This document shows positions 4,448 to 59,301 of a stretch of DNA of 64,000 nucleotides, piece by piece. Origin of the DNA: Mustelus asterias (Eukaryota). The stretch spans positions 97,092,001 to 97,156,000 of the forward strand of contig NC_135811.1 of NCBI RefSeq assembly GCF_964213995.1, read 5' to 3'. Positions within the stretch are counted from its first letter, which is position 1, and the number at the start of each line of letters is the position of its first letter. Both the position numbers and the translations under genes were made by a program. The notes under the pieces are model-generated. The model did not search any database. It worked only from the letters and a program-made list of their open reading frames with translations, and had not been told where the DNA came from.

Positions 4448-5622
4448 GTAAGAAGTCTCACAACACCAGGTTAAAGTCCAACAGGTTTATTTGGTAGCAA
4501 ATACCATAAGCTTTCGGAGCTTGCTGCTCCTTCGTCAGATGGAGTGGTCTCTGTTCTCCAACAGTGCACAGACACAGAAATCAAGTTACAGAATACTAAT
4601 TAGAATGCAAAACTCTACAGCCAGCCAGGTCTTAAAAGGTACAGATAATGTGGTTGGAGGGAACATTAAACACAGGTTAAAGAGATGTGTATTGTCTCCA
4701 GACAGAACAGCTGGTGAGATTATGCAAGACCAGGGGCGAACTGTGGGGGTTACTGATAATGTGACATAAATCCAACATCCCGCTTTAGGCCGTCCTCATG
4801 TGTGCGGAACTTGGCTATCAGTTTCTGCTCAGCGACTCTGCGCTGTCGTGTGTCGTGAAGGCCACCTTGGAGAACGCTTACCTGAAGATCCAAGGCTGAA
4901 TGCCCGTGACTGCTGAAGTGCTCCCCCACAGGAAGAGAACAGTCTTGCCTGGTGATTGTCGAGCGGTGTTCATTCATCTGTTGTCGTAGCGTCTGCATGG
5001 TTTCCCCAATGTACCATGCCTCGGGACATCCTTTCCTGCAGCGTATCAGGTAGACAACGTTGGCCGAGTTGCAAGAGTATGTACCGTGTACCTGGTAGAT
5101 GGTGTTCTCACGTGAGATGATGGCATCCGTGTCGATGATCCGGCACGTCTTGCAGAGGTTGTTGTGGCAGGGTTGTGTGGTGTCATGGTCACTGTTCTCC
5201 TGAAGGCTGGTTAGTTTGCTGCGGACAATGGTCTGTTTGAGGTTGCGTGGTTGTTTGAAGGCAAGAAGTGGGGGTGTGGGGATGGCCTTGGCGAGATGTT
5301 CGTCTTCATCAATGACATGTTGAAGGCTCCGGAGGAGATGCCGTAGCTTCTCCGCTCCGGGGAAGTACTGGACGACGAAGGGTACTCTGTCCACCGTGTC
5401 CCGTGTTTGTCTTCTGAGGAGGTCGGTGCGGTTTTTCGCTGTGGCGCGTCGGAACTGTTGATCGATGAGTCGAGTGCCATATCCTGTTCTTATGAGGGCA
5501 TCTTTCAGCGTCTGGAGGTGTCTGTTGCGATCCTCCTCATCCGAGCAGATCCTGTGTATTCGGAGGGCTTGTCCGTAGGGGATGGCTTCTTTTACGTGTT
5601 TAGTGTGGAAGCTGGAGAAGTG
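4448..5622 (-). mobile_element. Penelope-like retroelement 3' part (RT thumb, GIY-YIG endonuclease, pLTR) inserted in CR1
   Basis: IPYGQALRIHRIC, C-x4-C-x2-C, NVVYLIRC...YIGET...EH (GIY-YIG); 13-bp duplication ttctgtgaccaag at 4435-4447 and 5634-5646. Confidence 0.9.
4504..4542 (-). ncRNA. Minimal type I hammerhead ribozyme motif in PLE pLTR
   Basis: Minus strand reads CCAU-CUGACGA-A-GGAGC-AGCAA-GCUCC-GAAA-GCU-U-AUGG. Confidence 0.75.
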
Positions 5623-7485
5623 GACCAAGCCAGTTCTGTGACCAAGCCAGTTCTCCACCCATCTAGCCACCTCCCCCTTTATCCCATGAGATCCAACCTT
5701 TTGCACCAGCCTACCATGAGGGACTTTGTCAAACGCTTTACTAAAGTCCATATAGACAACATCCACGGCTCTTCCCTCGTCAACCATTCTGGTCACTTCT
5801 TCAAAAAACTCCACCAGGTTAGTGAGGCATGACCTCCCTCCCACAAAACCATGCTGGCTATCGTTAATGAGTTTATTCCTTTCTAAATGCGCATACATCC
5901 TATCTCTAAGAATCTTCTCCAACAACTTCCCCACCACGGACGTCAAGCTCACCGGCCTATAATTACCCGGGTTATCCTTCCTACCCTTCTTAAATAATGG
6001 GACCACATTAGCTATCCTCCAATCCTCTGGGACCTCACCTGCGTCCAGTGACGAGACAAAGATTTGCGTCAGAGGCCCAGCGATTTCATCTCTCGTCTCC
6101 CTGAGCAGCCTTGGATAGATTCCATCAGGCCCTGGGGATTTGTCAGTCTTTATATTCTCTAACAAATCTAACACTTCCTCCCTTGTAATGGAGATTTTCT
6201 CTAACGGTTCAACACTCCCCTCCGAGACACTCCCAGTCAACACATCCCTCTCCATTGTGAATACCGACGCAAAGTATTCATTTAGGATCTCCTCTACTTC
6301 TTTGGGCTCTAAGCATAATTCCCCACTTTTGTCCCTGAGAGGTCCGATTTTTTTCCCTGACAACCCTTTTGTTCCTAACATATGAATAAAATGCCTTGGG
6401 GCTCTCCTTAATCCTGTCTGCCAAGGACATTTCGTGACCCCTTTTTGCTCTTCTAATTCCCTGTTTGAGTTCTTTCCTACTTTCTTTGTACTCCTCCAGA
6501 GCTCCCTCCGTTTTTAGCTGCCTGGACCTAACATACGCCTCTCTTTTCTTTTTGACCAGTCCCTCAATTTCCCTGGTTATCCACGGTTCTCGAATCCTAC
6601 CCTTCCTATCCTTCTTTTTTACAGGCACATGCCTGCCCTGTAGCCCTAACAACCGTTCCTTAAAAGACTCCCACATGCTAGATGTGGATTTACCCTCAAA
6701 CAGCCTCTCCCAATCAAGAGCTGCCAATTTCTGCCTAATCCCACTAAAGTTAGCCTTCCCCCAAATCCAACACCTTACCCATGGGACACCACGCATCCTA
6801 TCTGTAATCTCCTTACAGATTTGCTCCTCAATTTCCTGCTGACTATTTGGGGGCCTATATTAAAACCCTATCAAAGTGATTTTCCCCTTCTTATTTCTCA
6901 GTTCTACCCATATAGACTCAGTGGCCGAACCCTCGGATATATCCCCTCTCAGTACTGCCGTGATGTTTTCCCTGATCAAAAGTGCAACTCCTCCTCTCCT
7001 CTTACCTCCTGTTATATCTTTCCTATAGCATCTGTACCCTGGAACATTGAGCTGCCAGTCCTGTCCCTCCCTTAGCCATGTTTCAGTAATTGGTATAATG
7101 TCCCAGTCCCATGTACCATCCATGCCCTGAGTTCATCTGCCTTGCCCATCAGGCCTCTTGCATTTCCCTGACGGTTGTGTGACTTTGGAACTCTCTGCCT
7201 CAGAAAGGCGTGGAAGCAGGGTCACTGAATATTTTTAAGGCGGAGGTAGGTAGATTCTTATTTGGCAAAGGAATCAAAGGTTATTGGGGGTAGATGTGGA
7301 ATGGGGGAAGTGTGGAAAAGAATTGGAGAGGACTAGGAATAACAGGGGAGAGGAGGTGGGGAATAATGGGGTGGGGGAATAATAGGGAGGGGAAGTGACA
7401 ATAGGTTTATTTATTAGTGTCACAAGTAAGTGTACATGAACACTGCAGTGAAGTTACTGTGAAAATCCCAAGTAACAGGGTGGAA

Positions 7486-7805
7486 TAGGAGTGGCACAGT
7501 GGTTAGCATTGCTGCCTCACAGCGCCAGGGACCCATGTTCAATACCGGCCTTGGGTAACTGTGTGGAGTTTTCATGTTCTTTCGTGTCTGCGTGGGTTTC
7601 CTCCGGGTGCTCCAGTCTCCTCCCACACTCCAAAACTGTACAGATGAGGTTGGATTGGCAGTGCTAAATTGCCCCCTGGTGTCAGGGGATTAGCAGTGTA
7701 AATGCATGGGGTTACGGGGATAGGGCCTGGGTGGGATTGTTGTCAGTGCAGACTCAAGGGACCAAATGGCCTCTTTTTGGACTATAGGGATTCTATGACT
7801 CTATG
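7486..7805 (+). mobile_element. tRNA-derived SINE (HE1/V-SINE-like), tail type A (GATTCTATGA)
   Basis: A box gtggcacagtggttagc, B-box-like gttcaatacc, core gtctgcgtgggtttcctccgggtgctcc. Confidence 0.8.
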
Positions 7806-8014
7806 AATAATGAATAACTAATACATGTAGAATCACACCAGACAAAAGGAGCTATTTAGCTCATTATGCTGGTTTCAGCTCTTTCAAAGAGCTATCCAAT
7901 CTATTCTCTTAATCACAAGCCCCATAAATGATTTATTTTCAGTTCAGTATCCAATTCCCTTTGGAAAGCTGCCATTGAGTCTGTATCTTGCAAGCTTCAC
8001 ACATCCCAGTCCAT

Positions 8015-9268
8015 TTTTTGATTTGATTTATTATTGTCACATGTATTAGTATACAGTGAAAAGTATTGTTTCTTGTGCGCTATACAGACAAAGCATACCG
8101 TTCATTGAGAAGGAAAGGAGTGCAGACTGTAGTGTTACAGTCATAGCTAGGGTGTAGAGAAAGGTCAACTTAGTGCAAGGTAGATCCTTTCAAATGACTG
8201 ATGGCAGCAGGGAAGAAGCTGTTCTTGAGTCGGTTGGTACGCGACCTCAGACTTTTGTATCTTTTTCCCGACGGAAGTAAGTGGAAGAGAGCATGTCCGG
8301 TATGCATAGGGTCTTTAATTATGCTGGCTGCTTTTCCGAGGCTGCAGGAAGTGTAGACAGAGTTAATGGATGGGAGGCTACTTTGCGTGATGGATTGGGC
8401 TACATTCATGACCTTTTGTAGTTTCTTGCTGTCTTGGGCAGAGCAGGAGCCATACCAAGCTGCAAAACAACCAGAAAGAATGCTTTCTATGGTGCATTTG
8501 TAAAGGTTAGTGAGAGTCGTAGTGGACATGTCAAATTTCCTTAGTCTTCTGAGAAAGCAGAGGTGTTGGTGGGCTTTCCTAACTGTAGTGTCGGCATGGG
8601 GGGACCAGGACAGGTTGTTGGTGATCTGGACACCTAAAAACGTGAAGCTCTCGACCATTTCTACTTCGTCCCCATTGACGTAGACAAGGGCATGTTCTCC
8701 ACTACGCTTCCTGAAGTCGATGACAATCTCTTTCATTTTGATAACATTGAGGGAGAGATTATTGTTGTTGCACCAGTTCACCAGATGCTCTACCTCATTC
8801 CTGTACTCTGTCTCGTCATTGTTTGAGATCCGACCCACTACAGTGGTGCCGTCAGCAAACTTGAAAATCGAGTTGGAAGGGAATTTGGTCACACAGTCAT
8901 AGGTGTATAAGGAATATAGTAGGGAGATGAGAACACAGCCTTGTGGGGCACCGGTGTTGAGGATGATCATGGAGGAGGTGTTGTTGTCTATCCTTACTGA
9001 TTGTGGTCTGTGGGTTAGGATGTTCAGGATCCAGTCACAGAGGGAGAAGCCGGGGCCCCGGCCACAGAGTTTGGAGATGAGTTTCGTGGGAATAATGGTG
9101 TTGAAGGCTGAGCTGTAGTCAATAAATAGGAGTGTGACATAGGCGTCCTTGTTATCTAGGTGTTCCAGGGTTGAGTGCAGGATCAGGGAGATGGCGTCTG
9201 CTGTGGACCCTGTTGTGATGGTAGATGAACTGTAGTGGATCCAGGCAATCTAGGAGGCTGGATTTGAT
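8015..9268 (-). mobile_element. Rex1/Babar-type LINE 3' fragment
   Basis: ORF 8170-8970 TGAPQGCV...LYT...FAD(G)TT...FLRRLRKF...RLKNSFFP; tail read as tttgatttgatttattattgtcac. Confidence 0.8.
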
Positions 9269-9592
9269 CTTCTCAAACAGAAGCAATTCTGCTGGCCTTC
9301 CCTCTGGTTACACCACCAATTATATTAACATTGAAAAGTTTATTGATAAAATTCAGCAATGTTTTCCCCTGCATTATATTCAATTGTTAAAAATGAAGGA
9401 TGTATATTTAATGTGGATGTAAAGTTCTCAACATGATAATTCATGAAAGGCTCCATGACAGTTCACATAAAATTGCTTATCAACTGCAATATGAATCCGT
9501 ATTCCCCACTCTTTCTACTTTCCATCTTAATTGTGCATTCATTGTCAAGAGTTTACATTTCTACAACATGTAATATGTTATTAACAAATCAA

Positions 9593-9890
9593 CTGGTTAG
9601 CACTGCTGCCTCACAGCGCCAGGGACCCGGGTTTGATTTACTGCTTGGGTCACTGTCTGTGTGGAGTTTGCACTTTCTCCCCGTGTCTGCGTGGGTTTCC
9701 TCCGGGTGCTCCGGTTTCCTCCCACAGTCCAAAAGACGTGCTGGTTAGGTGCATTGGCCGTGCTAAATTCTCCCTCGGTGTAACCCGAACAGGTGCCGGA
9801 GAGTGGCGACTAGGGGATTTTCACAGTAATTTCATTGCAGTGTTAATGTAAGCATATTTGTGACACTAATAAATAAGCTTAAACTTAAAA
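9593..9890 (+). mobile_element. tRNA-derived SINE, tail type B (...gtgacactaataaata)
   Basis: Same head and core as the other SINE copies, different 3' tail. Confidence 0.8.
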
Positions 9891-11574: not shown

Positions 11575-12225
11575 TCATTTTCCATCCTCCTCATTTCTCT
11601 TCTCATCTTTTCCACTCTGCTGTTTCTCTGCCTCTTGCTCAGGATTTAGCCGGGGAGTGGTTGTTGTCTCAGGGGTGATGTTGACGGGCACGGTTCGTTC
11701 ATTCACAGTTGGCAGTGCCAGGCGTGGGGCTTGAACCTTTAACCGACCGTCCTGTGACAAACAGCAGTTAAGAGCTTCAGCATCGACATCTTCAGGCAGC
11801 TGAAATTCTCTCCTGAACTCTTCATATTTGTAGCTGTAAGAGCCGCTGCCATCATCGCTTTTCTTCTCGTGTTTTCCCGTCACCAGCACTTTCCTTCCAA
11901 GTACTTTCACCTTCAGTTCTTCTGGGGAGAATCGCTGCACATCCAGGGACAGCGAAAAGCCGTCTCCATCCTTGTCCCCTGATTGTCTTTTACCTTCTTC
12001 ATTATCTTCAGCTCCCTTGTCCTGATTTCTTGACTTTTCCTCCCAAAATTCTTTTGCCAGCTCCTCAAGAACTCGATCCAGGAAGTTCATGCTCTTTCTC
12101 GCTTCTTCCACCTGATTCCACATGTTGCATCCAAGCGGTTCCCAGAGCCTGTGTGGAACAGGCCACAATGTGTACACAGGCTGCTGGCACTGACGTGAAG
12201 GATGGAAAGGCCGAAGGCTCAGCAT
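11575..12225 (-). CDS. hsp30: HSP30/HSPB9-like, copy 2 (216 aa)
   Basis: Near-identical to copy 1; ATG at 12225; intact alpha-crystallin domain. Confidence 0.92.
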   Translation of the reverse strand: MLSLRPFHPSRQCQQPVYTLWPVPHRLWEPLGCNMWNQVEEARKSMNFLDRVLEELAKEFWEEKSRNQDKGAEDNEEGKRQSGDKDGDGFSLSLDVQRFSPEELKVKVLGRKVLVTGKHEKKSDDGSGSYSYKYEEFRREFQLPEDVDAEALNCCLSQDGRLKVQAPRLALPTVNERTVPVNITPETTTTPRLNPEQEAEKQQSGKDEKRNEEDGK

Positions 12226-12318
12226 TGTCTCTGCCTCTTCTCTCACTTCTCTCAAAGCCACTGATGTGAACTCCCAGTCTTCAGTCTCTGATCTGCTGCA
12301 GCACTCGGAACACACGCC

Positions 12319-15558: not shown

Positions 15559-16209
15559 TCATTTTCCATCCTCCTCATTTCTCTTCTCATCTTTTTCACT
15601 TTGCTGTTTCTCTGCCTCTTGCTCAGGATTTAGCCGGGGAGTGGTTGTTGTCTCAGGGGTGATGTTGACGGGCACGGTTCGTTCATTCACAGTTGGCAGT
15701 GCCAGGCGTGGGGCTTGAACCTTTAACCGACCGTCCTGTGACAAACAGCAGTTAAGAGCTTCAGCATCGACATCTTCAGGCAGCTGAAATTCTCTCCTGA
15801 ACTCTTCATATTTGTAGCTGTAAGAGCCGCTGCCATCATCGCTTTTCTTCTCGTGTTTTCCCGTCACCAGCACTTTTCTTCCAAGTACTTTCACCTTCAG
15901 TTCTTCTGGGGAGAATCGCTGCACATCCAGGGACAGAGAAAAGCCATCTCCATCCTTGTCCCCTGATTGTCTTTTACCTTCTTCATTATCTTCAGCTCCC
16001 TTCTCCTGATTTCTTGACTTTTCCTCGCAAAATTCTTTTGCCAGCTCCTCAAGAACTCGATCCATGAAGTTCGTGCTCTTTCTCGCTTCTTCCACCTGAT
16101 TCCACATGTTGCATCCAAGCGGCTCCCAGAGCCTGTGTGGAACAGGCCACAATGTGTACACAGGCTGCTGGCACTGACGTGAAGGGTGGAAAGGCCGAAG
16201 GCTCAGCAT
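15559..16209 (-). CDS. hsp30: HSP30/HSPB9-like, copy 3 (216 aa)
   Basis: Near-identical to copy 2; ATG at 16209. Confidence 0.92.
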   Translation of the reverse strand: MLSLRPFHPSRQCQQPVYTLWPVPHRLWEPLGCNMWNQVEEARKSTNFMDRVLEELAKEFCEEKSRNQEKGAEDNEEGKRQSGDKDGDGFSLSLDVQRFSPEELKVKVLGRKVLVTGKHEKKSDDGSGSYSYKYEEFRREFQLPEDVDAEALNCCLSQDGRLKVQAPRLALPTVNERTVPVNITPETTTTPRLNPEQEAEKQQSEKDEKRNEEDGK

Positions 16210-16302
16210 TGTCTCTGCCTCTTCTCTCACTTCTCTCAAAGCCACTGATGTGAACTCCCAGTCTTCAGTCTCTGATCTGCTGCAGCACTCGGAACACACG
16301 CC

Positions 16303-16470: not shown

Positions 16471-17420
16471 GTACTCAGCCAGTAACAGCACAGATGGGAG
16501 GAGCAATGTTAATGATTGACAGGCGAGCAGCAGGCAGCCTGTGCAGGAAGGTGAGATTCTTTATGAACTGGGAGTGTTTCAGTGAATGAAATAGAAACTG
16601 ATATTATGAGAGAATGCTTTTCATTGATGTTGAAGATGTTAATATGATATTGAGCAGAGTGAGAAGGAGTGAAATTCCAATCAGTTTGATTCAGGTGAAG
16701 TGAAGTTCTGATTCTATCCCACAGAGAGGCATTAGTTCCCTTGTGAGAATGATAATACATATTTAAAATTCAGATAGTTACAAATAAACTGCTGTTCCAC
16801 TTATAATTACCTGTTGTCAGTTAAGGGCTTTGGTCTGAGATTTGCTAATTTAAAATCAATAATACGTTGTTGATAAGTCTAGTATCTCTGCTCAGAACGA
16901 GGCCATTCAGCCCATCATGCCTGTGTCAGCTCTTTGGAGAAAGAGCAGGAGATTTGGGAGTGATTGAATCAATCACTCCCAAATCTCCTGCTCTTTCTCC
17001 AAAGCTCTGCAAATTATTTCTTTGCAATCCCAATTTGAAAGTTGTCATTCAATCTCCCCTTTCACATTTTCCATTCCAGGAACAACAAAACAACACAAAT
17101 GAAAACTGTTTGTCTTCCCTCTGGTCTCTTCACTGAGAACATCAACATTGACAACATATTCATCATCAAATGGAGCAATGTTTCCATTTTCTGTGTTGTT
17201 AAATTAATAAAAATGGAGGCGCTCCCATTAATGTTGTTGCAAAGATCCCAACATCAGAACTTCCTCAATTGGTAAATTAGAGATTCCGTCACACACAAGA
17301 GTCTCCTGTGAACTGCACCTTAAATCTTTATTCTCAGGTGTGTTTTGGTAGCATTGCAACTAAGTAGATTCCAGGTTTAATTTAAATTATTTGTCTCAAT
17401 GTACCTTTGGGAACCATTTA

Positions 17421-20704: not shown

Positions 20705-21355
20705 TCATTTTCCATCCTCCTCATTTCTCTTCTCATCTTTTCCACTCTGCTGTTTCTCTGCCTCTTGCTCAGGATTTAGCCGGGGAGTGGTTGTTGTCTC
20801 AGGGGTGATGTTGACGGGCACGGTTCGTTCATTCACAGGTGGCAGTGCCAGGCGTGGGGCTTGAACCTTTAACCGACCGTCCTGTGACAAACAGCAGTTA
20901 AGAGCTTCAGCATCGACATCTTCAGGCAGCTGAAATTCTCTCCTGAACTCTTCATATTTGTAGCTGTAGGAGCCGCTGCCATCATCGCTTTTCTTCTCGT
21001 GTTTTCCTGTCACCAGCACTTTTCTTCCAAGTACTTTCACCTTCAGTTCTTCTGGGGAGAATCGCTGCACATCCAGGGACAGAGAAAACCCATCTCCATC
21101 CTTGTCCCCTGATTGTCTTTTACCTTCTTCATTATCTTCAGCTCTCTTGTCTTGATTCCTTGACTTGTCCTCACAAAATTCTTTTGCCAGCCCCTCAAGA
21201 ACTCGATCCATGAAGTTCATGCTCTTTCTCATTTCTTCCACCTGATTCCACATGTTGCATCCAAGCGGCTCCCAGAGCCTGTGTGGAACAGGCCACAATG
21301 TGTACACAGGCTGCTGGCACTGACGTGAAGGGTGGAAAGGCCGAAGGCTCAGCAT
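20705..21355 (-). CDS. hsp30: HSP30/HSPB9-like, copy 4 (216 aa)
   Basis: Near-identical to copies 2 and 3; ATG at 21355. Confidence 0.92.
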   Translation of the reverse strand: MLSLRPFHPSRQCQQPVYTLWPVPHRLWEPLGCNMWNQVEEMRKSMNFMDRVLEGLAKEFCEDKSRNQDKRAEDNEEGKRQSGDKDGDGFSLSLDVQRFSPEELKVKVLGRKVLVTGKHEKKSDDGSGSYSYKYEEFRREFQLPEDVDAEALNCCLSQDGRLKVQAPRLALPPVNERTVPVNITPETTTTPRLNPEQEAEKQQSGKDEKRNEEDGK

Positions 21356-21448
21356 TGTCTCTGCCTCTTCTCTCACTTCTCTCAAAGCCACTGATGTGAA
21401 CTCCCAGTCTTCAGTCTCTGATCTGCTGCAGCACTCGGAACACACGCC

Positions 21449-22537: not shown

Positions 22538-24917
22538 TAATCAGGTAATACATGTCAAAGGACTTAAAAAGAAAGTTATACATTCCTTAGGGAAGAATAA
22601 GGGAGACCTGGAAGCAAAAGCCATACTAGGTAAGCCACCAAGTTGTAAACATAGTTCAGCAGTTACTAGAGAAAAACTGTGAAAAATACAGATTTTGAAT
22701 GCCGACAATGAATGCCTTATTGTCTCAACTAAACCTGACCTCTGATACGAATATCTCACAAGCAAAAGAGAACCTTCAATGCCAAGACTGTGCTAATATA
22801 TATCACCTAAAATAAAGCAAACTTAACCTCGTCTGATGAAAGCCTGATCTTATAAGCTTTCAATCTAATGGAATTTAAAATGTCTTTAGTTTTATTTTGG
22901 AAAGTTATTTTGAAACTGCAATGATGTGATGTCAAAGCATTTTGGTCTTTTAAAAGTCCATGCATCTAATATCTACTGCAACTTTCATCCACCGAGTCTC
23001 TTAATTCATCGAAGAACTCAACCAGGTTTGTCGCACAACTTGCCTTTGACAAAGCCATGCTGGCTGTCCCTTATTAACCAATGCTTTCCCAAGAGACAAT
23101 TAATTTTGTCCTTGGCATTCATTGAACTTTCATTCAACTTTCTATCACCGGGACTGCTTACTTCAAACCAAGGGTATTGACTGCATCAGTGTTCCTGCTA
23201 CTAAACCCCTCTTTTAACTTCTTGTTACCTCTACTTTTATCTATTCTCCTGTTTATGGCCTCCCAGCCCTTAAACTCCGAATCATCCAAAAATCTACCAT
23301 GCATCTGACGCTACAAACCATTCGCTCATCACCATCATCCTTGCTGGCTGACACAGACTGCTTATTTCACAGAGCATTGCTCGCAAGATCCTTAAATTTG
23401 GTTCTCAAATTCCTGTGTGGCCTTGGCCCAATAGATCCCACATATTTCTGTCATTAGGCCATTGTTTCGTCTACTGTCTTCCCACCATTGAAAGCAGAAC
23501 CTGTAGCCAACTCATATAGCTCCCTCCCTAAGTTGTACTGACTCCTTATATCTTTCTCCTGTTTTTAAAATCCATGACAAAATTTACCATTTTTGATAAG
23601 CTTTCGGACACTCATGCACATCTCTACTGACCACTCCCTTTTCCCTTATCTATTATTTTATCTTGGGATGTGCCTTGTGGTGTTTATATGATGAATCCAC
23701 AATGAAAATGCAAGTTATACCTTCCCCTCACCACCTCTGTGAAATAGCAATTCAACAATAGCTTTTTTTAAATTCATTTATGGGACATGGGTGTCACTGG
23801 CTGGGCCAGCATTTATTGCCCATCCCTAGTTGTCCTTGATCAGAGGGCAGTTGAAAGTTAACCACATTGCTGTGGCTCTGGAGTCACATGTAGACCAGTC
23901 CAAGTAAGGACGGCAGATTTCCTTCCCTGAAGGACATTAGTGAACCAGGTGGGTTTTTCCGACACTCGACAATGGTTTCATGGTAGATTCTTAATTCCAG
24001 ATATTCTTAATTGAATTTGAATTCCACCATCTGCCGTGGCGGGATTCGAACCCAGGTCCTCAGAACATTAGCTGAGTTTCTGGACTAATAGTCTAATGAC
24101 GGTACCACTAGGCCATTGCCTCCCCTGGATGACAGAAGGCTCATTCTCCCTCCAATAAGGTTGCACTGGAGCCTAGACCTAATATTCTGCAAAACAAACT
24201 GTTGAAAGAATAATTGACATCTCTCTGATGTGACTGTATCTCTTCACTCTGTCAATAAAATCTCATGACTGATTTTGTTCGCAAAATGTGTGTTAGTTTG
24301 TGCTAGTGCTTTCAATATATTAATCTTACATATCTATTAACCTCCAATGTCATGCACATGAAGGAGTCACCATACACTCCAAATGGGCCAGAAGACAGTT
24401 CCAGGATTCTGAGCTAATTTCTTTCAAGTCACATGAGCAGGAATATGGTGCAATGAGTATTTGGCTGCTTGTGACATCACTTCAGATTCTGGAACTATGA
24501 GGCAACCACTTGGAAAATAAACATATAAGCTAGTCTTTGCTTCAGTCAGTACCCAGCTTTTCAGAAAACATTCCTGAAAATATGTGTAATGTCCCAACTA
24601 TGTTAAGGGTTGTGGGTTTCACACAACAAGAAAAGACGGGGTTTGCACGTGTAGATTCATACCAACACATCACAGGTTTTATTGAAAGAGATGTTCTCTG
24701 CACTGCACAGTGTACAAAACTGAGTGTAAAACAGCAGCCTCTGCAAACACCCTAATGACATCGCCATCAAATCATATGATCAGCTCTGAAAGCAACCACG
24801 CAATCTGTTTAAAAATATAACGATGTGGAGATGCCGGCGTTGGACTGGGGTAAACACAGTAAGAAGTTTAACAACACCAGGTTAAAGTCCAACAGGTTTA
24901 TTTGGTAGCAAAAGCCA

Positions 24918-24954
24918 CACAAGCTTTCGGAGCTCCAAGCCCCTTCTTCAGGTG
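24918..24954 (-). ncRNA. Minimal hammerhead ribozyme motif
   Basis: CAC-CUGAAGA-A-GGGGC-UUGGA-GCUCC-GAAA-GCU-U-GUG. Confidence 0.7.
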
Positions 24955-25152
24955 AGTGGGAATTCTATTCACAAACAGGGCATATAAAGACTCAGACTCA
25001 ATTTACATGAATCTTTGTAGAAACTTGATGTCCAAGTGGAGAGGATCTCCAAGAAGATCGCGCATATCGACACAGACATCAAGTTTCTACAAAGATTCAT
25101 GTAAATTGAGTCTGTGTCTTTATATGCCCTGTTTGTGAACAGAATTCCCACT

Positions 25153-25189
25153 CACCTGAAGAAGGGGCTTGGAGCTCTGAAAGCTTGTG
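25153..25189 (+). ncRNA. Minimal hammerhead ribozyme motif
   Basis: CAC-CUGAAGA-A-GGGGC-UUGGA-GCUCU-GAAA-GCU-U-GUG. Confidence 0.65.
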
Positions 25190-26202
25190 TGGCTTTTGCT
25201 ACCAAATAAACCTGTTGGACTTTAACCTGGTGTTGTTAAACTTCTTACTAAAAATATAACAAATGAGAACTCAACAAATCAGAAATGTCATACAACTGTT
25301 TCTATTTCCTAATTTCTGACTTTTAATTGGGACTAGCTTAGGGGTTTAAAAAGGGCAGCATGAACAAGTCGGGCCGAAGGGCCTGTTTCCATGGTGTAAA
25401 CCTCTATGACTGCTCTGCAGGATGTGATTAATTCATTAAAACTCATTCCTTTAGTACTCAAGCTCTTTCTGTCCTGCACCCAGCTGCATTTTAAGCATGT
25501 CCAATGTTGTTGCTTCCACATTCTTGCCAGACAGGTTACTGCTAACATTACTCATCCTGAATGAAGGTCGTTCTGTTTTCAATTGACTTTTGCTAATTTA
25601 ATTCCATGGCCCACCGGTCCTGATTTCCAGGTTTACCCTGATGTAATATTTTAGGTGTGCTATCAACGTAATGTAATATTTCATGGCTAACTGATCAAAG
25701 TTGATAGCTATAATCTCCTTTTGAGAACTTTATATCTTTCCCTTGCACAGATTACTCACCAGAGGTCAGTACAACGGCAAACCTGTGTCCACTTTAGCAT
25801 AAATAGGTAAACCAGGTGAGAAAGATCACAATTATTCTATTGTCAGGAAGGAATATTTTGGATACAAGTTCCAGTTGCTGATCATTATGAAGTGATAGGA
25901 TTACCCAAGAAACAGGAAGGGCAGAATTATCTCCCTCTGAGCTGTAAAATTCAATGAAATACCTGTAGCCATAGAAATGTATATATAATATTTTCACTTT
26001 ATTGAGTAGACAAATTGAATCAATACATTACTCTTCTCAAACGTCCATTTTTTTAACAGATAGAGAAAAAATAAGTAATTATCCACAACAGCTGGACATT
26101 GAATATATTATGATACCAATTTCACAGATGCGTACATCTTTTCTGTTCTTTATAACTACAAAAAAATTCAATGTAAATAAGTCTAAAGAGGTCCATTTTG
26201 TT

Positions 26203-26844
26203 TCAACCTTTCTTGTTCCCCTCATCTTTTTCACTTTGCTGTTTCTCTGCCTCTTGCTCAGGATATAACCGGGGAGTGGTTGTTGTCTCAGGGGTGATGT
26301 TGACGGGCACAGTTCGTTCATTCACAGCTAGCAGTGCCAGGCGTGGGGCTTGAACCTTTAACCGACCGTCCTGTGACAAACAGCAGTTAAGAGCTTCAGA
26401 ATCGACATCTTCAGGCAGCTGAAATTCTCTCCTGAACTCTTCATATTTGTAGCTGTAGGAGCCGCTGCCATCATTGCTTTTCTTCTCGTGATTTCCTGTC
26501 ACCAGCACTTTTCTTCCAAACACTTTCACCTTCAGTTCTTCTGGGGAGAATCGCTGCACATCCAGGGACAGGGAAAAGCCATCTCCATCCTTGTCCCCTG
26601 ATTGTCTTTTGCCTTCTTCATTATTTTCAGCTCTCTTCTCCTGATTTCTTGGCTTTTCCTCCCAAAATTCTTTTGCCAGCTCCTCAAGAACTCGATCCAT
26701 GAAGTTCATACTCTTTCTCATTTCTTCCACCTGATTCCACATGTTGCATTCAAGCGGCTCCCAGAGCCTGTGTGGAACAGGCCACAATGTGTACACAGGC
26801 TGCTGGCACTGACGTGCAGGGTGGAAAGGCCGAAGGCTCAGCAT
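26203..26844 (-). CDS. hsp30: HSP30/HSPB9-like, copy 5 (213 aa, distinct C-terminus)
   Basis: Intact ORF from ATG at 26844; ends KDEGNKKG; 3' UTR not alignable by eye to the other copies. Confidence 0.9.
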   Translation of the reverse strand: MLSLRPFHPARQCQQPVYTLWPVPHRLWEPLECNMWNQVEEMRKSMNFMDRVLEELAKEFWEEKPRNQEKRAENNEEGKRQSGDKDGDGFSLSLDVQRFSPEELKVKVFGRKVLVTGNHEKKSNDGSGSYSYKYEEFRREFQLPEDVDSEALNCCLSQDGRLKVQAPRLALLAVNERTVPVNITPETTTTPRLYPEQEAEKQQSEKDEGNKKG

Positions 26845-26937
26845 TGTCTCTGCCTCTTCTCTCACTTCTCTCAAAGCCACTGATGTGAACTCCCAGTCTT
26901 CAGTCTCTGATCTGCTGCAGCACTCGGAACACACGCC

Positions 26938-28852: not shown

Positions 28853-29276
28853 AATGATGTGGAGATGCCGGCGTTGGACTGGGGTGGGCACAGTAAGAAG
28901 TCTCACAACACCATGTTAACGTCCAACAGGTTTATTTGGTAGCACAAACTTTCGGAGTATCGCTCCTTCTTCAGGTGAGTGAGGCGTTGTGTTCACAAAC
29001 AGGGCATATATAGACACAAACCCAATTTACAAGATAATGGTTGGAATGCGAGTCTTTACAGGCAATCAAGTCTTAAAGGTACAGACAATGAGAGTGGAGA
29101 GAGAGTTAAGCACAGGTTAAAGAGGTGTGTATTGTCTCCAGCCAGGACAGTTAGTGAGATTTTGCAAGCCCAGGCAAGTCGTGGAGGTTACAGATAGTGT
29201 GACATGAACTTAAGATCCCAGTTGTGCTACCAAATAAACCTGTTGGACTTTAACCTGGTGTTGTGAGACTTCTTAC
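28853..29276 (-). mobile_element. PLE pLTR fragment with a short terminal inversion
   Basis: Same pLTR sequence as 4448-4780 and 51006-51350; inverted ~50-bp end at 29224-29276; TSD tgtggtttgcagc at 28840-28852 and 29277-29289. Confidence 0.85.
28943..28977 (-). ncRNA. Minimal hammerhead ribozyme motif (stem III variant)
   Basis: CAC-CUGAAGA-A-GGAGC-GAU-ACUCC-GAAA-GUU-U-GUG. Confidence 0.55.
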
Positions 29277-29861
29277 TGTGGTTTGCAGCTCACAGAGAAG
29301 CCCAAGTAGCTGTTATCAGGATCCGGCTCTGGCTCCCAGATGTCCTTGGGAGCTGATAAGATTGCTGGTTCTGTGATGGGGAGAGTTAGGGCTCAGGGAG
29401 AAATCCTGAGGGCCATTTAGCTTGGTGCAGCCGGGAGACTGGAGTTCGGAAAAACACAAGGTCATTGCCAGCTTAGTCTGCAGGAGTTGAAATTGTGCTG
29501 GTAATTAGAGCTGGGAGTGCAGTTTTGTGAATCCCATGTAAAGCAGCCTCGGGAAGAAATGGAACCATTGGGAGGTGAGCAGTCATTTAGGCAATCTGAG
29601 TCACGAGAGGTTTTTGAGATAATTCAGGGCCTAGATCTTCGAGAGTGAAGAGCTGAAATCCCCTGTGAGAAAAGCAGAGTTTTAACGAGATTTTCTGACT
29701 TGCTGAAGTCTGGGTGGGTTGCGGAGCAATCCATGGGATCTGTCTTGGTTGCATCTGCCATTTAGTGTTCAGTGTGCTGCGTTTGACCAGTTTGCTTGTT
29801 AATTCATATTCACCTGACGTGAATTCTGAATTGCTTTACTTTTCAAAGTGAGTTACTGAAA

Positions 29862-32062: not shown

Positions 32063-32446
32063 GGGGCGGCACGGGGGTTAGCACTGCTGCCTCACAGCGC
32101 CAGGGACCCAGGTTCGATTCCCGGCTCGGGTCACTGTTTGTGTGGAGTCTGCATGTTCTCCCTGTGTCTGCGTGGGTTTAGCTAATGACATTTGCTACCA
32201 AATAAACCTGTTGGACTTTAACCTGGTGTCGTTAAAACTCTTACTGTGTTTACCCCAGTCCAACGCCGGCATCTCCACATCATGGGTTTCCTCCCACAGT
32301 CTGAAAGACTTGCTGGTTAGGCGCATTGGCCATGCTAAATTCTCCCTCAGTGTACCCAAACAGGTGCCGGAGCGTGGTGACTAGGGATTTTCACAGTAAC
32401 TTCATTGCACTGTTAATGCAAGCCTACTTGTGACACTAATAAACTT
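32063..32446 (+). mobile_element. tRNA-derived SINE (tail B) interrupted by a PLE terminal fragment at ~32191-32282
   Basis: SINE core split at tgggttt; insert ttgctaccaaataaacctgttggac...ccggcatctccacatca. Confidence 0.8.
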
Positions 32447-38930: not shown

Positions 38931-38934
38931 ATGT

Positions 38935-50013: not shown

Positions 50014-51102
50014 AGACTGGAAATTGCAGGAGTTTTACTCCAAGATTTATCTTCAGTCTTGAGAAGTGCTGCATCTTTTTTGCATGATATTCTTACTGGT
50101 TAATATCTAAATAATAGCAATCAATTGCTAATATCATCAGATGTTGTTTAACAGTTTGTTTTGAAAGAGTGCAAGTTCCTCGAATTAAAACACATGATTT
50201 AAACTGAAGTTCTATTATACTCTTTAAGTTACAGCTTTTTGTGTTGTGTCTGCTGCTGAGAAACACACAAAAGGCCTTATTTATTTTTGTAACAATTCAT
50301 ATATCTGCATTCTTGCTTGGTTCAGCTGATTGCATGTTTTATACACTTGAATATTCATTCATGAATAGAAACTGCAGTATTATGTGAACAAATATATACA
50401 TAATCAATTGAACTTGGTTATATTCATTCCTTCTTATGGTCACAAAGTTACTAGTGACCGGTGTCAGATTGAATGGTTTAATTTTAATTTTCCCCACACA
50501 CTGAGAACCATAGAATGGTTACAACACAGAAAGAGGCCATTCAGTCCATCCTGCCCATGCCAACTTTCTATGCCAACAGCTCAGCTAGTCCCAATCCCTT
50601 GACCTTTCCTCATAATTTTGTTCTTTTTAGGTGTGCTTCCAGTTCTCTTTTCAAATTCCTGATTGAGTCTGCCCTCCCCAACGTTCTCGGGCACCTCATT
50701 CCAGATCCCAGCCACGCAATGTTTTTTTTTTTGAAAGTCACTTTAAATCGATGTCTCTGGTTCTCAACGCTCCCACCTCCCTATCTACTGCACCCCTTTA
50801 TTTCGAACAGTTTTACTAAATCTGCTCTCAGCCTTTTCTTTAAGAAAATACTTCCAGCTTCAATTTATCCTCATAACTGAAGTGTCTTTCCTGCGTCCCT
50901 TCTAAAGCCTTTCCATTTTGCCTAAAACCCAGAATTGAACACAATACTCCAGGTGAGGCTGAGCCAGTGTTTTATGCAAGTTTACCATGGGAGTTGTATG
51001 GTTGTCATGATGTGGAGATGCCGGCGTTGGACTGGGGTGAACACAGTAAGACGTTTAACAACACCAGGTTAAAGTCCAACAGGTTTATTTGGTATCAAAA
51101 GC

Positions 51103-51139
51103 CACAAGCTTTCGGAGCCTTAAGCTCCTTCTTCAGGTG
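51103..51139 (-). ncRNA. Minimal hammerhead ribozyme motif
   Basis: CAC-CUGAAGA-A-GGAGC-UUAAG-GCUCC-GAAA-GCU-U-GUG. Confidence 0.72.
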
Positions 51140-53443
51140 AGTGGGAATTCTGTTCACAAACAGGGCATATAAAGACACAAACTCAATTTACAGAATAATG
51201 GTTGGAATGTGAATACTTACAGCTAATCAAGTCTTAAAGGTACAAACAATGTGAGTGGAGAGAGCATGGTATTGTCTCCAGACAGGACAGCCAGTGAGAT
51301 TCTGCAAGTCCAGGCAAGCTGTGGGGATTACAGATAGTGTGACATGAACCCAATATCCTGGTTGAGGCCGTCCTCATGTGTGCGGAACTTGGCTATCAGT
51401 TTCTGCTCAGCGACTCTGCGCCGTCGTGTGTCGTGAAGGCCACCTTGGAGATCGCTTACCCGAATATCAGAGGCCGAATGCCCGTGACCGCTGAAGTGCT
51501 CCCGAACAGGAAGAGAACAGTCTTGCCTGGTGATTGTCGAGCGGTGTTCATTCATCTGTTGTCGCAGCGTCTGCATGGTTTCCCCAATGTACCATGCCTC
51601 GGGACATCCTTTCCTGCAGCGTATCAGGTAGACAAGGTTGGCCGAGTTGCAAGAGTATGTACCGTGTACCTGGTGGATGGTGTTCTCACATGAGATGATG
51701 GCATCTGTGTCGATGATCCGGCACGTCTTGCAGAGGTTGCTGTGACAGGGTTCTGTGGTGTTGTGGTCACTGTTCTCCTGAAGGCTGGTTAGTTTGCTGC
51801 GGACAATGGTCTGTTTTGAGGTTGTGCGGTTGTTTGAAGGCAAGAAGTAGGGGTGTGGGGATGGCCTTGGCGAGATGTTCGTCTTCATCAATGACATGTT
51901 GAAGGCTCCGGAGGAGATGCCGTAGCTTCTCCGCTCCGGGGAAGTACTGGACGACAAAGGATACTCTGTCCACTGTGCCCCGTGTTTGTCTTCTGAGGAG
52001 GTCGGTGCGGTTTTTTGCTGTGGTGCGTCGGAACTGTCGATCGATGAGTCAAGTGGCATATCCTGTTCTTATGAGGGCATCTTTAAGCGTCTGGAGGTGA
52101 CAGTTGCGATCCTCCTCATCCGAGCAGATCCTGTGTATACGGAGGGCTTGTCCGTAGGGGATGGCTTCTTTAACGTGTGTAGGGTGGAAGCTGGAGAAGT
52201 GGGGCATCGTGAGGTTATCCGTGGGCTTGCGGTATAGTGAGGTGCTGAGGTGACCGTCCTTAATGGAGATGCGTGTGTCCAAGAATGCAACTGATTCCGG
52301 AGAGTAGTCCATGGTGAGTCTGATGGTGGGATGGAACTTGTTGATGTCATCATATAGTTGTTTCAGTGATTGTTCACCATGAGTCCAAAGGAAGAAAATG
52401 TCATCGATGTATCTAGCGTATAGCATCAGTTGAAGGTCCTGTGCGGTGAAGAAGTCTTATTCGAGCCTGTGCATGAAGATGTTGGCATATTGAGGTGTGA
52501 ATTTGGTCCCCATGGCTGTTCCGTGTGTCTGGATGAAGAACTGGTTGTTGAAGGTGAAGACATTGTAGTCCAGGATGAAGCGGATGAGTCGTAAAATTGC
52601 TTCCGGAAACTGGCAGTTGTCGGCGCTGAGCATTGAGGCAGTTGCAGCAATGCCATCATCGTGGGAGATGCTGGCGTAGAGTGCCGAGACATCCATTGTG
52701 ACGAGGAGTGCTCCTGGTTCAACTGCTCCATGTGTGCCGAGTTTCTGTAGGAAGTCCATAGTGTCGCGGCAAAAGCTGGGGGTTCTTTGTACAATGGGTT
52801 TCAGGATGCCCTCGACATAGCTGGAGAGGTTCTCGCACAGAGTCCCATTGCCCGATATAATGGGACAGATGCCATCATCTCACGTGAGAACACCATCCAC
52901 CAGGTACACGGTACATACTCTTGCAACTCGGCCAACCTTGTCTACCTGATACGCTGCAGGAAAGGATGTCCCAAGGCATGATACATTGGGGAAACCATGC
53001 AGACGCTGCGACAACAGATGAATGAACACCACTCGACAATCACCAGGCAAGACTGTTCTCTTCCTGTTGGGGAGCACTTCAGCGGTCACGGGTATTCGGG
53101 TAAGCGTTCTCCAAGGTGGCCTTCACGACACACGACAGCGCAGAGTCGCTGAGCAGAAACTGATAGCCAAGTTCCGCACACATGAGGACAGCCTAAACCA
53201 GGATATTGGGTTCATGTCACGCTATCTGTAATCCCCACAGCTTGCCTGGACTTGCAGAATCTCACTGGCTGTCCTGTCTGGAGACAATACACGTCTTTTT
53301 CATCTGTCTTAATGCTCTCTCCACTCACATTGTTTGTTTGTACCTTTAAGACTTGATTAGCTGTAAGTATTCGCATTCCAACCATTATTCTGTAAATTGA
53401 GTTTGTGTCTTTATATGCCCTGTTTGTGAACAGAATTCCCACT

Positions 53444-53478
53444 CACCTGACGAAGGAGCAGCGCTCCGAAAGCTTGTG
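53444..53478 (+). ncRNA. Minimal hammerhead ribozyme motif, sense to KAT2A pre-mRNA
   Basis: CAC-CUGACGA-A-GGAGC-AGC-GCUCC-GAAA-GCU-U-GUG. Confidence 0.75.
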
Positions 53479-53763
53479 GCTTTTGCTACCAAATAAACCT
53501 GTTGGACTTTAACCTGGTGTTGTTAAACTTACTGAGTTGTATGGTTACCAAGGAACTGAGTAATCAATTAATAAATTGATTAAAACCCTTTACACTCAAT
53601 GCATCATTTCGTCCAGCCCCCTTCCATGTCAAAATGTACAGAAGTTTAAATAATACTGACCTGCATTTATTTTTATGAGAAGAATCCCTGCTGAACAAGA
53701 TGTTTATAATTAGTGCAGCTATTATTGACATTTTCAGTAATATTTCATATAATTTCTCTCTAG

Positions 53764-53887: not shown

Positions 53888-53990
53888 GTAACTATTTTTG
53901 TGGACCGAGGTTTCACTGTGATGCTTAAAACTTGTAATTTGGTGGTTCAACAACTTGGCGAATGTCCCACCTATTTCTTGGACTTGGGTT

Positions 53991-54055
53991 TGAGGACGGC
54001 CTAAACCAGGATATTGGGTTCATGTCACACTATCTGTAATCCCCACAGCTTGCCT
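53991..54055 (+). repeat. 65-bp PLE fragment just downstream of KAT2A exon 2
   Basis: tgaggacggcctaaaccaggatattgggttcatgtcacactatctgtaatccccacagcttgcct matches 53183-53247 and the reverse complement of ~51312-51376. Confidence 0.85.
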
Positions 54056-54973
54056 CTACTTCAGTCCGGCGTGATGGAATGAAAGCTTTCTGTCTTCGGG
54101 TGCAAGTGCAATGAGTTTTTAATCGGTGTGCCTGGGTCCACAGTGTATAACTGTTCAATATTCAGCACAATGAGCACACAATTGTTGACCTCCCCCACTG
54201 AGCAAATAAAGGTGGCTCGTGTGAAAAGTAGGGTGGCTGGGATGGGCACAGAAGAGTCATCTTTCAAGGCTGACATTTGCTCAGGAATGATGCCCATGCA
54301 GTGATTTCTTTTCAATGTGGTAAGTTTGCCTGTGCCTGAGGGAAGGACGTGCAAACTTAATACTTTCACACAAGGACGCAGTGGAGCATTAGAAGACGGC
54401 TTACTATTGGTCAGTTGTCAACTAGCATGGTGAAAGTTTTGAGGAAATTATCGGCATTGTTCAGTTAAATAAGAAGCCATTTTGAATGTAGTTGTACTCC
54501 GCTGCACGTAAGGAATTGATATAGAAGTGAGCAACACTTCATTTTAAAATTCTCATCCATATTTTCAAATTCTTCCATGATCTTGCTCCTGCTATTTATG
54601 TAACCTCCTCCTGCTCTACAATCCATTGCAATATCTGTGATCCTCCAATTCAGGCCTTGTGCACACCTCTGATTTTAATTACTTATTCCTTAATGCCTTT
54701 AGTTACTGAGGACCGAAGCTCAGAACTTCCCTCCCTAAGACTCTCCGCCCCATTACCTTATTTTTCTCTTTCAAAATGCTCCAAGGAACACACCTACCTA
54801 TGACTTGGTGTTAAATTTTGTTTGATAATGCTTGCATGGGCCTTTTTAGCACATTAAAGGTGCTGTAGAAATGCACATGTACTGTAGAAATAAGATCCTA
54901 TTTCAAAATAATTTGCGTAGAGAGGTAAATAAATGTCTCATAAGTCTCACATTTTTTTATGTTTGACCATTAG

Positions 54974-55119: not shown

Positions 55120-55499
55120 GTAAGTCTGAAAGGTACTCTGGCTGATCTAACAACCTGGGAAATTGGTGCTACAGCTTTGTATTTCCTGTGTTGAATAAGA
55201 TATTTACTAAGCATCGGTTAAGTCTAAAAAATGTCCCTTTGACTACATGTATGAGGCATGTTGCAGTGGCAGTGGTGTGTTGTGGGGCTCACTTTCCAAA
55301 TGTGAGAAACTCAATTAATGAACTTGGGTGTCCTATGGTCTTATGAGTAAAATAAACCATAACTGCTGCAGCAGTGCAATATCTCATTGCGTATCCTGTT
55401 CTCACGTGAAAATGTTTATCGCTAGTTTTGAAACTTTGAGATTGCGAAATATTGAATAGTTTTGTGTGAACATTCGTACACATACTACTTTTAAGGTTA

Positions 55500-55778
55500 A
55501 AGATTATTTATTAGTGTCACAAGTAGGCTTACATTAACACTGCAATGAAGTTACTGTGAAAATCCCCTAGTCGCCACACTCCGGTACCTGTTTGGGTACG
55601 CTGAGGGAGAATTTTAGCACAGCCAATGCACCTAACCACATCTTTCGGACTGTGGGAGGAAACCAGAGCACCCGGGGGAAACCAGCACAGACACTGGGAG
55701 AAAGTGCAGACTCCGCACAGAGTGTGACCCAAGCCGGGAATCAAACCCGGGTCCCTGGCGCTGTGAGGCAGCAGTGCT
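55500..55778 (-). mobile_element. tRNA-derived SINE, tail type B
   Basis: Reverse-complement SINE. Confidence 0.8.
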
Positions 55779-56732: not shown

Positions 56733-57045
56733 CATAGAATCCCTACAGTGCAGAAGGAGGCCATTCAGCCCATCGAACCTGCACCGACAGCAATCCCACC
56801 CTGGCCCTATCCCCCTAACACCAAGTATTTACCCTGCTAGCCCCCCTGACATTAAGGGGCAATTTAGCATGGCCAATCCATCTAACCCGCACGTCTTTAG
56901 ATTGTGGGAGGAAACCGGAGCATCCGGAGGAAACCCAAGCAGACACAGGAGGAAGTGCAAACTCCACACAGGCAATGACCTGAGGCTGGAATTGAATCCG
57001 GGTCTCTGGCGCTGTGAGGTAGCAGTGCTAACCACCGTGCTACCC
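56733..57045 (-). mobile_element. tRNA-derived SINE, tail type A
   Basis: Reverse-complement SINE. Confidence 0.8.
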
Positions 57046-57582
57046 ATCTGATCATGTATTAATAATAACGTCTGGTCATGTATTAAAATATCTGGATGAA
57101 TTCCTATTACTATGTAGGATATAGAACTATTAATTCCAGAATCACAGGACAGGCTCCAATAGAAGATTTGGAAGTGTAGACTAGAATCAATGATCAGTTC
57201 AAAACAATCAGTAAAAACAAAATTCTGGTATTACTCAGCAGGTCAAGTGACATCTGTCAAGTAACCTTTCCTGAGTTGGTGTTTGGTTTTTGTATGTTGC
57301 TGCTGTTTGAGAAATGTACAATTTGTCTGTTGACTTTTAGACATCAAGTGGAACAGACTTGTAAGCAATGTGCGTATAACATTAAAGCTCTCCAGACAAG
57401 TTGGATTAAGTGAAGAAAACAAGCATTTTTATAAAGTTGTGCAATGTGTACCAAGCAGCAAACCAAACATTCCAATGCAATGTACAATATGAAGCTGCAG
57501 GTACTTAAATTGCATTCCATTTGCACTGTATTTTCACACATTGTAATGAGGCAAGTAGCTGACTTTCTTTCCTCCTTGTTAG

Positions 57583-57672
57583 CTTTTACGGAAATGTATC
57601 TTGCAAATGGCACGCCCTGTGGTAGAAGGAAAGTTGGGAAGCCCTCCATTTGAAAAACCAAGCATCGAGCAG
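57583..57672 (+). CDS. KAT2A: KAT2A exon 4
   Basis: tag|LLRKCILQMARPVVEGKLGSPPFEKPSIEQ|gtgag. Confidence 0.95.
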
Positions 57673-58988
57673 GTGAGGTTTTGTGACTGGAAGTTTGAGT
57701 GTGGTTGTAGTTTTGGCTGGATTATGAGTGCTGGATCAGAATGTTCCATTCATAATCTAAATCTTAAGCATCACTGATTAAACTTCGAGGGAGTGAAAAT
57801 AGTCTTTTATCAAAAATAGCAAGGCAATAAATACTTGTGGCTAAAATGTAAAATCTTGGTTGTGACGTAGGAAGAATCTAAGAGTTGTAAATGTTGTGGG
57901 CTGAAATGTCTGAGCGCAAAGACACTGCAGTTTACCTTTAGTCTTCTGGATTGATTGTTTCATTACTAAATGTATTGATGTGCTTGCATTTTAAATAAGC
58001 CAAGGAGTATATTTTGCAGAAATTATTCATTGTTTTGCAGAAGAATTTCTCAATGTTTTCACGTTTCGAAGTTGAAACCAATGGTGAGCATAGACTTTTC
58101 CTAAACAGCACTGAGCCCCCTAGATGGAGGATCTGAACCTTTTTTATTATTCACTCATGGGATATGGTTGTCACTGGCTAAGCCAGCATTTATTGCCCTT
58201 GAGAAGGTGGTGAACTGCTACAATCTATGCAGTGCTTGTATACCATTAGCGAGGGAGTGCCAGGATTTTGACCCAGTGACAGTGAACAACCGCCAATATA
58301 TTTCCAAGCCTGGATGGTGAGTGGCTTGGAAGGGAACTTGCGGGTGGTGATGTACACATGTATCTGCTGCCCTTGTCCTTCCAGGTGGTTGTGGGTTTGG
58401 AAGGTGCTGTTTAAGGAGCCATTGGTGAGTTCCTGCAGTGCATCTTGTAGATGTGGCATGTTGCTGCCTGTGCGTTGGTAGTGGAGGGTGTGTGTCGATA
58501 ATAGAGGGAGTGAATGGCATTCTTCTCACGAACAATCTGAGGGGCTGCTGATTGAAGAATAAGTGATGCATTGAAATGTCAGCCAAATTTATGTGGTCAA
58601 TTCACTGGAAAGGTGCATGTAATTGCAACTCGACATTGTTAAAGATTTAAATGTTGATGGAAAAAGAAGTGAAACAGAGTTTCTTGCATGTTCGACTTGG
58701 GGATAAAGGAAAAAGCTGTGGCACCACTAACTTGTCAAAATTAGCATTAGTGGGAAGGGGAGAATCCTCTAAAGAGGGTGATTGCTTTCAACCCTGTTAG
58801 TGTCTGCCTGTCTCGGGCAGCATCATGCTCAAAATTAGATGACCTCCAATTGACATTTTAACACAACTGTTTGGAATATGATGTTGGTGATATACCTACA
58901 AGGCTCCGAAAAGGCAAATTTTGATTTTTTTAATGTGCTGCTTTGCTCTTACAAAAATAATCTGGGCAGTCTGCCTTGGGCTCTCCAT

Positions 58989-59301
58989 AGTAAGAAGTCT
59001 CACAACACCAGGTTAAAGTCCAACTGATTTATTTGGCAGCACAAGCTTTCGGAGTCTTGCTCCTTCTTCAGGTGAGTGAGGAGTTGTGTTCACAAACAGG
59101 GCATATACAGACACAAACTCAATTTACAAGATAATGGTTGGAATGTGAGTCTTTACAGGTAATCAAGTCTTAAAGGTACAGACAATGTGAGTGGAGAGAG
59201 GGCCAAGCACAGGTTAAAGAGGTGTGTATTGTCTCCAGCCAGGACAGTTAGTGAGATTTTGCAAGCCCAGGTGAGTCGTGGGGGTTACAGATAGTGTGAC
59301 A
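58989..59301 (-). mobile_element. PLE pLTR fragment
   Basis: Colinear with 28892-29205; degenerate TSD ttgggctctccat / ttggctctcat. Confidence 0.82.
59040..59074 (-). ncRNA. Minimal hammerhead ribozyme motif
   Basis: CAC-CUGAAGA-A-GGAGC-AAG-ACUCC-GAAA-GCU-U-GUG. Confidence 0.62.

Follow-up and report, generated by a model that had tools for sequence, protein, structure and literature searches.

Hammerhead ribozymes in a Neptune-type Penelope-like retrotransposon of the shark Mustelus asterias and insertion junctions at their predicted cut site

The stretch analyzed here (the window) covers 64,000 nucleotides of the Mustelus asterias genome (NCBI RefSeq assembly GCF_964213995.1, contig NC_135811.1, positions 97,092,001 to 97,156,000) and carries several insertions of a Penelope-like element (PLE), a retrotransposon with pseudo-long terminal repeats (pLTRs). 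The original prediction placed seven minimal type I hammerhead ribozyme motifs in these pLTRs. All seven were recovered, two of them on the plus strand and the other five on the minus strand, each with the predicted layout of stem I, CUGANGA, A, stem II, GAAA-GYU-U and stem I'. They are given below with the two positions between which cleavage is predicted.

4504-4542, minus strand: hammerhead of the subfamily with a U-A pair in stem I, a clade of the tree; predicted cut 4508/4507
24918-24954, minus strand: hammerhead of insertion B, arm with tail; predicted cut 24921/24920
25153-25189, plus strand: hammerhead of insertion B, arm without tail; predicted cut 25186/25187
28943-28977, minus strand: hammerhead of the short subfamily, AGUU replacing AGCU; predicted cut 28946/28945
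51103-51139, minus strand: hammerhead of insertion D, arm with tail, N7 = A and loop UUAAG; predicted cut 51106/51105
53444-53478, plus strand: hammerhead of insertion D, arm without tail, N7 = C and loop AGC; predicted cut 53475/53476
59040-59074, minus strand: hammerhead of the short subfamily in solo pLTR E; predicted cut 59043/59042

The seven motifs belong to only five insertions, as 24918/25153 and 51103/53444 are arm pairs of single inverted insertions with target-site duplications. The statement that every full pLTR copy has the motif was also qualified: in two more pLTR 3' remnants, near 29222-29283 and 32180-32284, the core has been lost by 5' truncation. The insertions and fragments, some of which contain parts of the open reading frame (ORF) for a reverse transcriptase-endonuclease (RT-EN), are as follows.

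4448-5623, minus strand: insertion A, a 5'-truncated PLE within a long interspersed nuclear element (LINE), with RT C-terminus, C-X4-C-X2-C linker, GIY-YIG and pLTR, no tail; 12-bp duplication on both sides
24822-25249, no single strand: insertion B, two head-to-head pLTR arms that are 98% complementary and enclose a short stretch from the ORF 5' region; 12-bp duplication
28853-29283, no single strand: insertion C, a tailed minus arm and a short inverted arm at 29222-29283; 12-bp duplication
51007-53538, no single strand: insertion D, a minus arm with a broken RT-EN coding part to 52865 and a plus arm at 52865-53538; 13-bp duplication
58986-59302, minus strand: solo pLTR E with one hammerhead; target-site duplication shorter and imperfect
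32180-32284, plus strand: pLTR 3' remnant with tail and no core, truncated about 5 nt upstream of the cut
53991-54061, plus strand: fragment of the ORF end and pLTR start, without hammerhead

The inverted arm of insertion C starts within about 2 nt of the predicted cut, inside a 3-nt overlap, and the two arms of insertion D differ in their hammerhead haplotype. The spacer of insertion B (25033-25074) derives from the 5' region of the ORF and represents a template jump. An RVT_1 match in the ORF at 4750-6513 was discarded as proof of a Penelope element, since it falls in the LINE hosting insertion A.

The conserved core (C3 U4 G5 A6 N7 G8 A9, G12 A13 A14 A15.1 and U16.1-H17) is present in all seven motifs. 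Helix I closes the ends, and helix II contains G10.1-C11.1 in every copy except 25153, which has G-U at 10.1-11.1; its CUCU lies at a CpG and is probably the product of decay after insertion. Stem II is 5-6 bp long in five window copies and 4 bp in two. A palindromic 15.1-16.1 without stable helix III was found in six of the seven, the exception being 28943, where AGUU gives no palindrome and a UUU triplet. An Rfam scan of the window returned 8 matches at E<=1, no hammerhead family among them, which is likely due to the missing helix III. The assignment to minimal type I hammerheads of Penelope-like pLTRs, with a palindromic helix III for dimers, matches the published consensus, of which the extra A before stem II, present as predicted, is a regular part and no special feature.

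The PLE parts in the window encode RT motifs, the C-X4-C-X2-C linker and a GIY-YIG domain. In an unbroken genomic copy (L032), an 892-aa ORF runs from the first ATG between two hammerhead pLTRs 3,021 nt apart. RT motifs, the same linker and VVY...YIG could be read from its sequence, and RVT_1 was matched at E 1e-8; the Pfam scan gave no GIY-YIG match for L032 itself, and relatives carry PF01541. The nearest named proteins are shark proteins (84-93%). A single ORF with RT and, at the C-terminus, GIY-YIG, pLTRs arising from partial tandems, inverted 5'-truncated arms and an optional tail of 30-40 nt were all found, as in endonuclease-containing (EN+) PLEs. According to the available text of PMC8557442, a CX2-5CxxC linker between RT and EN marks Neptune and is shared with Nematis; as only Neptune and Poseidon are described from vertebrates in the part of bioRxiv 10.64898/2026.07.22.740005 at hand, the element is, judged by its linker, probably a Neptune-type rather than a Nematis-type PLE. 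About 200 nt separate the ORF stop from the hammerhead and about 100 nt the hammerhead from the next ATG; two insertion ends lie downstream of it. The 3' ends of copies cluster in two peaks, near positions 313-320 and 349-356 and thus some 38 nt from each other. The element family is also present in presumed-RNA contig sets of other organisms, contigs that say nothing on ends or strand.

Around the ribozyme, a candidate poly(A) signal, AAUAAA, occurs about 8-17 nt past the predicted cut and is followed by a GU-rich stretch (window 4485-4490, minus strand; same place in every pLTR). A possible 71-nt GT-AG intron lies just upstream of stem I in some subfamilies (window 51149-51219, minus strand, ending 12 nt before C3), a layout like that of Drosophila virilis. 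No matching spliced joint was present among the joints listed from presumed-RNA contigs, and the AG is absent in the short subfamily. In Heptranchias, an epn2 isoform model (P0046) contains a piece of the element protein (86% over 28% of the query), either by exonisation or by gene-model error.

The ribozyme was then followed across the 3.68-Gb assembly. The strict motif pattern gave 61,260 exact matches (30,633 + 30,627) and its reversed control 0, so that the motif is not a product of chance. A loose core combined with a downstream anchor gave 116,747 matches, in which position 17 is U (70,831), A (35,507), C (9,475) or G (934), and the downstream 30-mer alone matched 153,544 times. The predicted CUU cleavage site is thus the commonest, but position 17 is also A or C in many copies; it is not G in 99.2% of all 116,747 matches. 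G17, which impairs minimal hammerheads according to the accessible part of PMC3884650, accounts for only 0.8%, and sampled G17 copies sit singly on the backgrounds of other subfamilies and are scattered over the tree, as decay would give. The sampled loci held 341 distinct anchors, 257 with an intact core, in a set enriched by core-based searches; A9.1 was found in 255 and GCU in 238 of these 257. Among 53 long copies, nearly all picked by the anchor only, none of 16 core columns varied in at least 10% of copies as against 49 of 115 upstream columns (Fisher p 0.0005, the columns not being independent). Stem II haplotypes stay paired, including A-U > G-U > G-C steps, while loop II varies in length and sequence. 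Position 17 switched among A, U and C several times and became G in no amplified clade sampled. The original claim of covarying helices was overstated. The swap in stem I exists (pair 2.1-1.1 being C-G in 85, U-A in 34 and other in 6 of 125 copies with upstream pLTR), but all U-A copies fall into one clade of the upstream-flank tree (114 rows, support 100/98) and the swap is therefore one event; within the seven window copies one of eight pairs changes on both sides, a score reached by 66 of 500 shuffles (not significant). The prediction that the ribozyme structure is under selection across the amplified subfamilies is supported by other patterns, namely the invariant core beside a variable flank, the pairing kept in stem II and the rarity of G17.

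If the cut RNA is copied, the RT should run off at position 1.1, and insertion junctions can be counted there. In the AUGG subfamilies the junction pattern matched 253 times exactly at A1.1, 122 times at -4, the one control offset of this test, and 909 times anywhere between N7 and G12. The observed ratios were 0.278 at the cut and 0.134 at -4, as compared with 0.06-0.09 and 0.09-0.13 in simulations of uniform truncation. Hence the control fits the simulation and the cut stands 3-4.5 times over the null. By eye, about 44 of the first 100 A1.1 matches are fold-back palindromes, and the excess is about twofold without them; palindromes centred on A1.1-U1.2 were rejected as special evidence, those elsewhere being as common among the head-to-head junctions described below. 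A pause of the RT at the foot of stem II was considered and rejected, as about 6 of the first 100 N7-G12 matches start there (by eye), near the per-position mean.

Head-to-head junctions with 6-36 nt between the anchors number 5,770 genome-wide. The arms of the first 50 were scored, one junction ending at -7 being dropped as identical to another. From the remaining 49 insertions, 28 of 98 arms end at 0 or -1 (20 unambiguously, one being miscalled owing to a point change), and 12 end at -2 or further out. The values expected under twelve nulls, which allow for correlated arms and weight microhomology, are 7-18 and 25-51, respectively. The resulting P ranges from 0.01 to 1e-10, with arms treated as independent, which is optimistic. 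In the GUGUGG subfamily, which has its cut 2 nt further out, G1.1 is the exact end point of 5 of 8 arms (null 2-24%), with overlaps no larger than 1 nt. Of the 49 short inverted insertions, 47 combine an arm that has a tail with one that does not, and 35 show duplications of at least 9 bp as against 5 of 500 random pairs; these insertions are therefore single events. The pairing of a tailed with a tail-less arm is expected from two RT start sites, such as those described in the accessible text of PMC11167929. Of 39 inverted insertions that retain both cores and show a duplication of at least 9 bp, 38 have one tail, and in at least four of the 39 (L031, which is insertion D, L038, L191 and L235) two different amplified haplotypes of loop II occur together. 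Such insertions are compatible with two RNAs each, or with two pLTRs of a single chimeric transcript, and two templates would offer a way to form the dimer in trans. The surplus of short head-to-head pairs as such was rejected as evidence, arm lengths being correlated upstream too. A new insertion into an old pLTR was also rejected as the cause of arms ending at the cut, as no upstream core half was nearby in 15 of 16 loci.

From these observations, we consider it probable that the pLTR hammerheads of this Neptune-type PLE cut their own RNA, inefficiently, as dimers and with the help of the element's protein. Two motifs would pair through AGCU, lying either on the same tandem transcript or on two RNAs that an RT-EN dimer keeps together, and the paired motifs would cut 3' of position 17. 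Most templates would be reverse-transcribed uncut, giving copies that run through the ribozyme. A minority would be cut first, so that tail-primed reverse transcription would run off at 1.1 and leave short head-to-head insertions ending there. A more far-reaching reading, held tentatively and falling somewhat short of probable, is that the genome is a fossil record of germ-line cleavage, in which a trans double hammerhead was held by an RT-endonuclease dimer and both cDNAs ran off at 1.1, leaving thousands of short head-to-head insertions. If true, this would be DNA-only evidence that minimal PLE hammerheads cut in vivo and that their 3' products are transposition templates.

Several results weigh against cleavage. 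The active fold is not the minimum-energy one, stems I and II lying 1.8-6.8 kcal/mol above it in the seven motifs, and no double hammerhead was predicted for cofolded dimers. The next 45 nt downstream equal the core in conservation, partly because they served as anchor, so protein binding may account for some of the constraint. None of six copies that continue from the pLTR into the ORF begins at 1.1 (four pass the site, two begin downstream). A general sample comprised the first 100 among 5,590 junctions of all types, less 10 that were point-mutated or indel-bearing; of these 90, 7 lie at 0 and 7 at -1 against 8-11 and 7-8 expected, and offset +1 holds 16 against 6 expected. The excess thus seems confined to inverted junctions, an after-the-fact reading based on the general pattern excluding A-rich inverted flanks by design. 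For the anole element, the accessible part of PMC11167929 describes no RNA-seq reads beginning or ending at the cut and core mutants without effect on insertion in vitro, and in Xenopus, 8 of 9 retrozyme dimers failed to cleave according to the part of bioRxiv 10.64898/2026.07.22.740005 available. The junction excess can be regarded as a real lead from genomic sequence, with mixed support. The folding is further complicated in the GUGG and GUGUGG subfamilies by a predicted 7-bp hairpin pairing G12-U16.1 with bases just past the cut (window 51095-51113 and 24910-24928, both minus strand), possibly an off-switch.

The unfavoured active fold, the conserved downstream 45 nt, the fold-back palindromes among A1.1 matches and the lack of an excess at the cut in the general sample would all suit a hammerhead retained by descent that now serves, in the region where the RT is primed, as a non-cleaving structure or as a binding element for protein, with microhomology and fold-back at local palindromes producing the excess of junctions. 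One 4-nt microhomology is indeed common to 5 of the 28 cut-ending arms, and Naiad elements thrive without hammerheads, as stated in the consulted part of PMC8557442. We nevertheless find this account unlikely, as position 17 moved among three bases and avoided G in the sampled amplified clades, the microhomology-weighted nulls fail to give the observed excess, and five of the eight GUGUGG arms end exactly at G1.1 with almost no overlap. That the copies are alike solely through the shared origin of a recent repeat, their structure not being under selection, is very improbable: the young subfamilies do sit on short branches and the seven copies give no significant covariation, but the core is invariant beside a variable flank, stem II stays paired around a varying loop and G17 is avoided.

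The run-off at 1.1 could also come from a capped 5' end if transcription started at or next to this position, the ribozyme then having its role, if any, at another stage of the cycle. In 4 of the 5 exact-cut GUGUGG arms and in two more such junctions of the general sample, G1.1 is preceded by a G, which is what a copied cap would give, and pLTRs carry promoters. However, the AUGG junctions show no surplus of G before A1.1, C being commoner (by eye), none of the six copies running on into the ORF begins at 1.1, and in D. virilis the start lies upstream of intron and ribozyme, as reported in the available text of PMC4209133. A start site at the cut thus appears improbable, and inefficient dimeric self-cleavage is retained as the preferred explanation.

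The anatomy of the motif was already known and is ordinary for PLEs; the junction excess at the predicted scissile bond is new here. In the parts of the literature at hand, the role of PLE hammerheads is still called unclear and no in vivo cut is shown. As described in the accessible text of PMC4209133 (Cervera and de la Pena, 2014), metazoan PLE hammerheads are type I, lie in pLTRs, have a short helix I, an extra nucleotide between 9 and 10.1, G10.1-C11.1 and a palindromic 15.2-16.2, and occur in many solo and opposite-strand pairs, all as here; the same source reports them in fish Xena, Poseidon and Neptune, with low dimer cleavage. The present case differs by its shark host, its helix II of 4-6 bp and at least 116,747 matches, as compared with about 4,000 in coelacanth and 9,000 in Xenopus. 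The Anolis Poseidon element PAc (Frangieh et al., 2024; PMC11167929, consulted in part) likewise has a hammerhead upstream of two RT starts bounding a 30-40 nt tail, and both DNA strands are extended. Its cleavage is protein-assisted and not needed for insertion in vitro. In contrast to PAc, the shark element has a Neptune-type linker, its ribozyme and tail lie before the ATG and not inside the ORF, and its genomic junctions are enriched at the cut, where no RNA ends were reported for PAc. Inverted pLTR insertions of Adineta Penelope elements, in the portion of PMC3846280 available, also have head-to-head arms, one of them tailed, junction palindromes and duplications (8-10 bp). They were ascribed to self-priming on an antisense template, whereas the different arm haplotypes found here fit two templates better. 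Animal non-LTR retrozymes, as far as bioRxiv 10.64898/2026.07.22.740005 was accessible, carry type I hammerheads related to those of pLTRs, also in one chondrichthyan, but as tandem non-coding units, unlike the dispersed or inverted window copies joined to ORF sequence. Among papers covered by title and start of abstract, none dealt with shark PLE hammerheads or cut-site junctions; most subscription papers and supplements lie outside this coverage, and supplements may list shark elements. With more than 100,000 copies, insertion junctions can serve as a read-out of RNA ends, and the same tally is applicable to any PLE-rich genome. Should a full tally confirm the excess at 1.1, this would link ribozyme cleavage to the transposition cycle and help to explain inverted one-tailed insertions.

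The window also contains five near-identical intronless ORFs of 244-247 codons, at 432-1175 on the plus strand and at 11575-12318, 15559-16302, 20705-21448 and 26203-26937 on the minus strand. The first matches the HSP20 domain (E 1e-19) and the five are 95-99% alike, forming a small heat-shock gene cluster. A near-perfect 80-nt palindrome lies at 16927-17008, with weak miRNA-family matches below gathering scores. A LINE-type RT frame followed by a Pfam ALKBH8_N match occupies 8170-9249 on the minus strand. Finally, a tRNA-derived short interspersed nuclear element is present in many copies (7484-7565, 9578-9785 and about 15 more) and appears to resemble the shark HE1 family.

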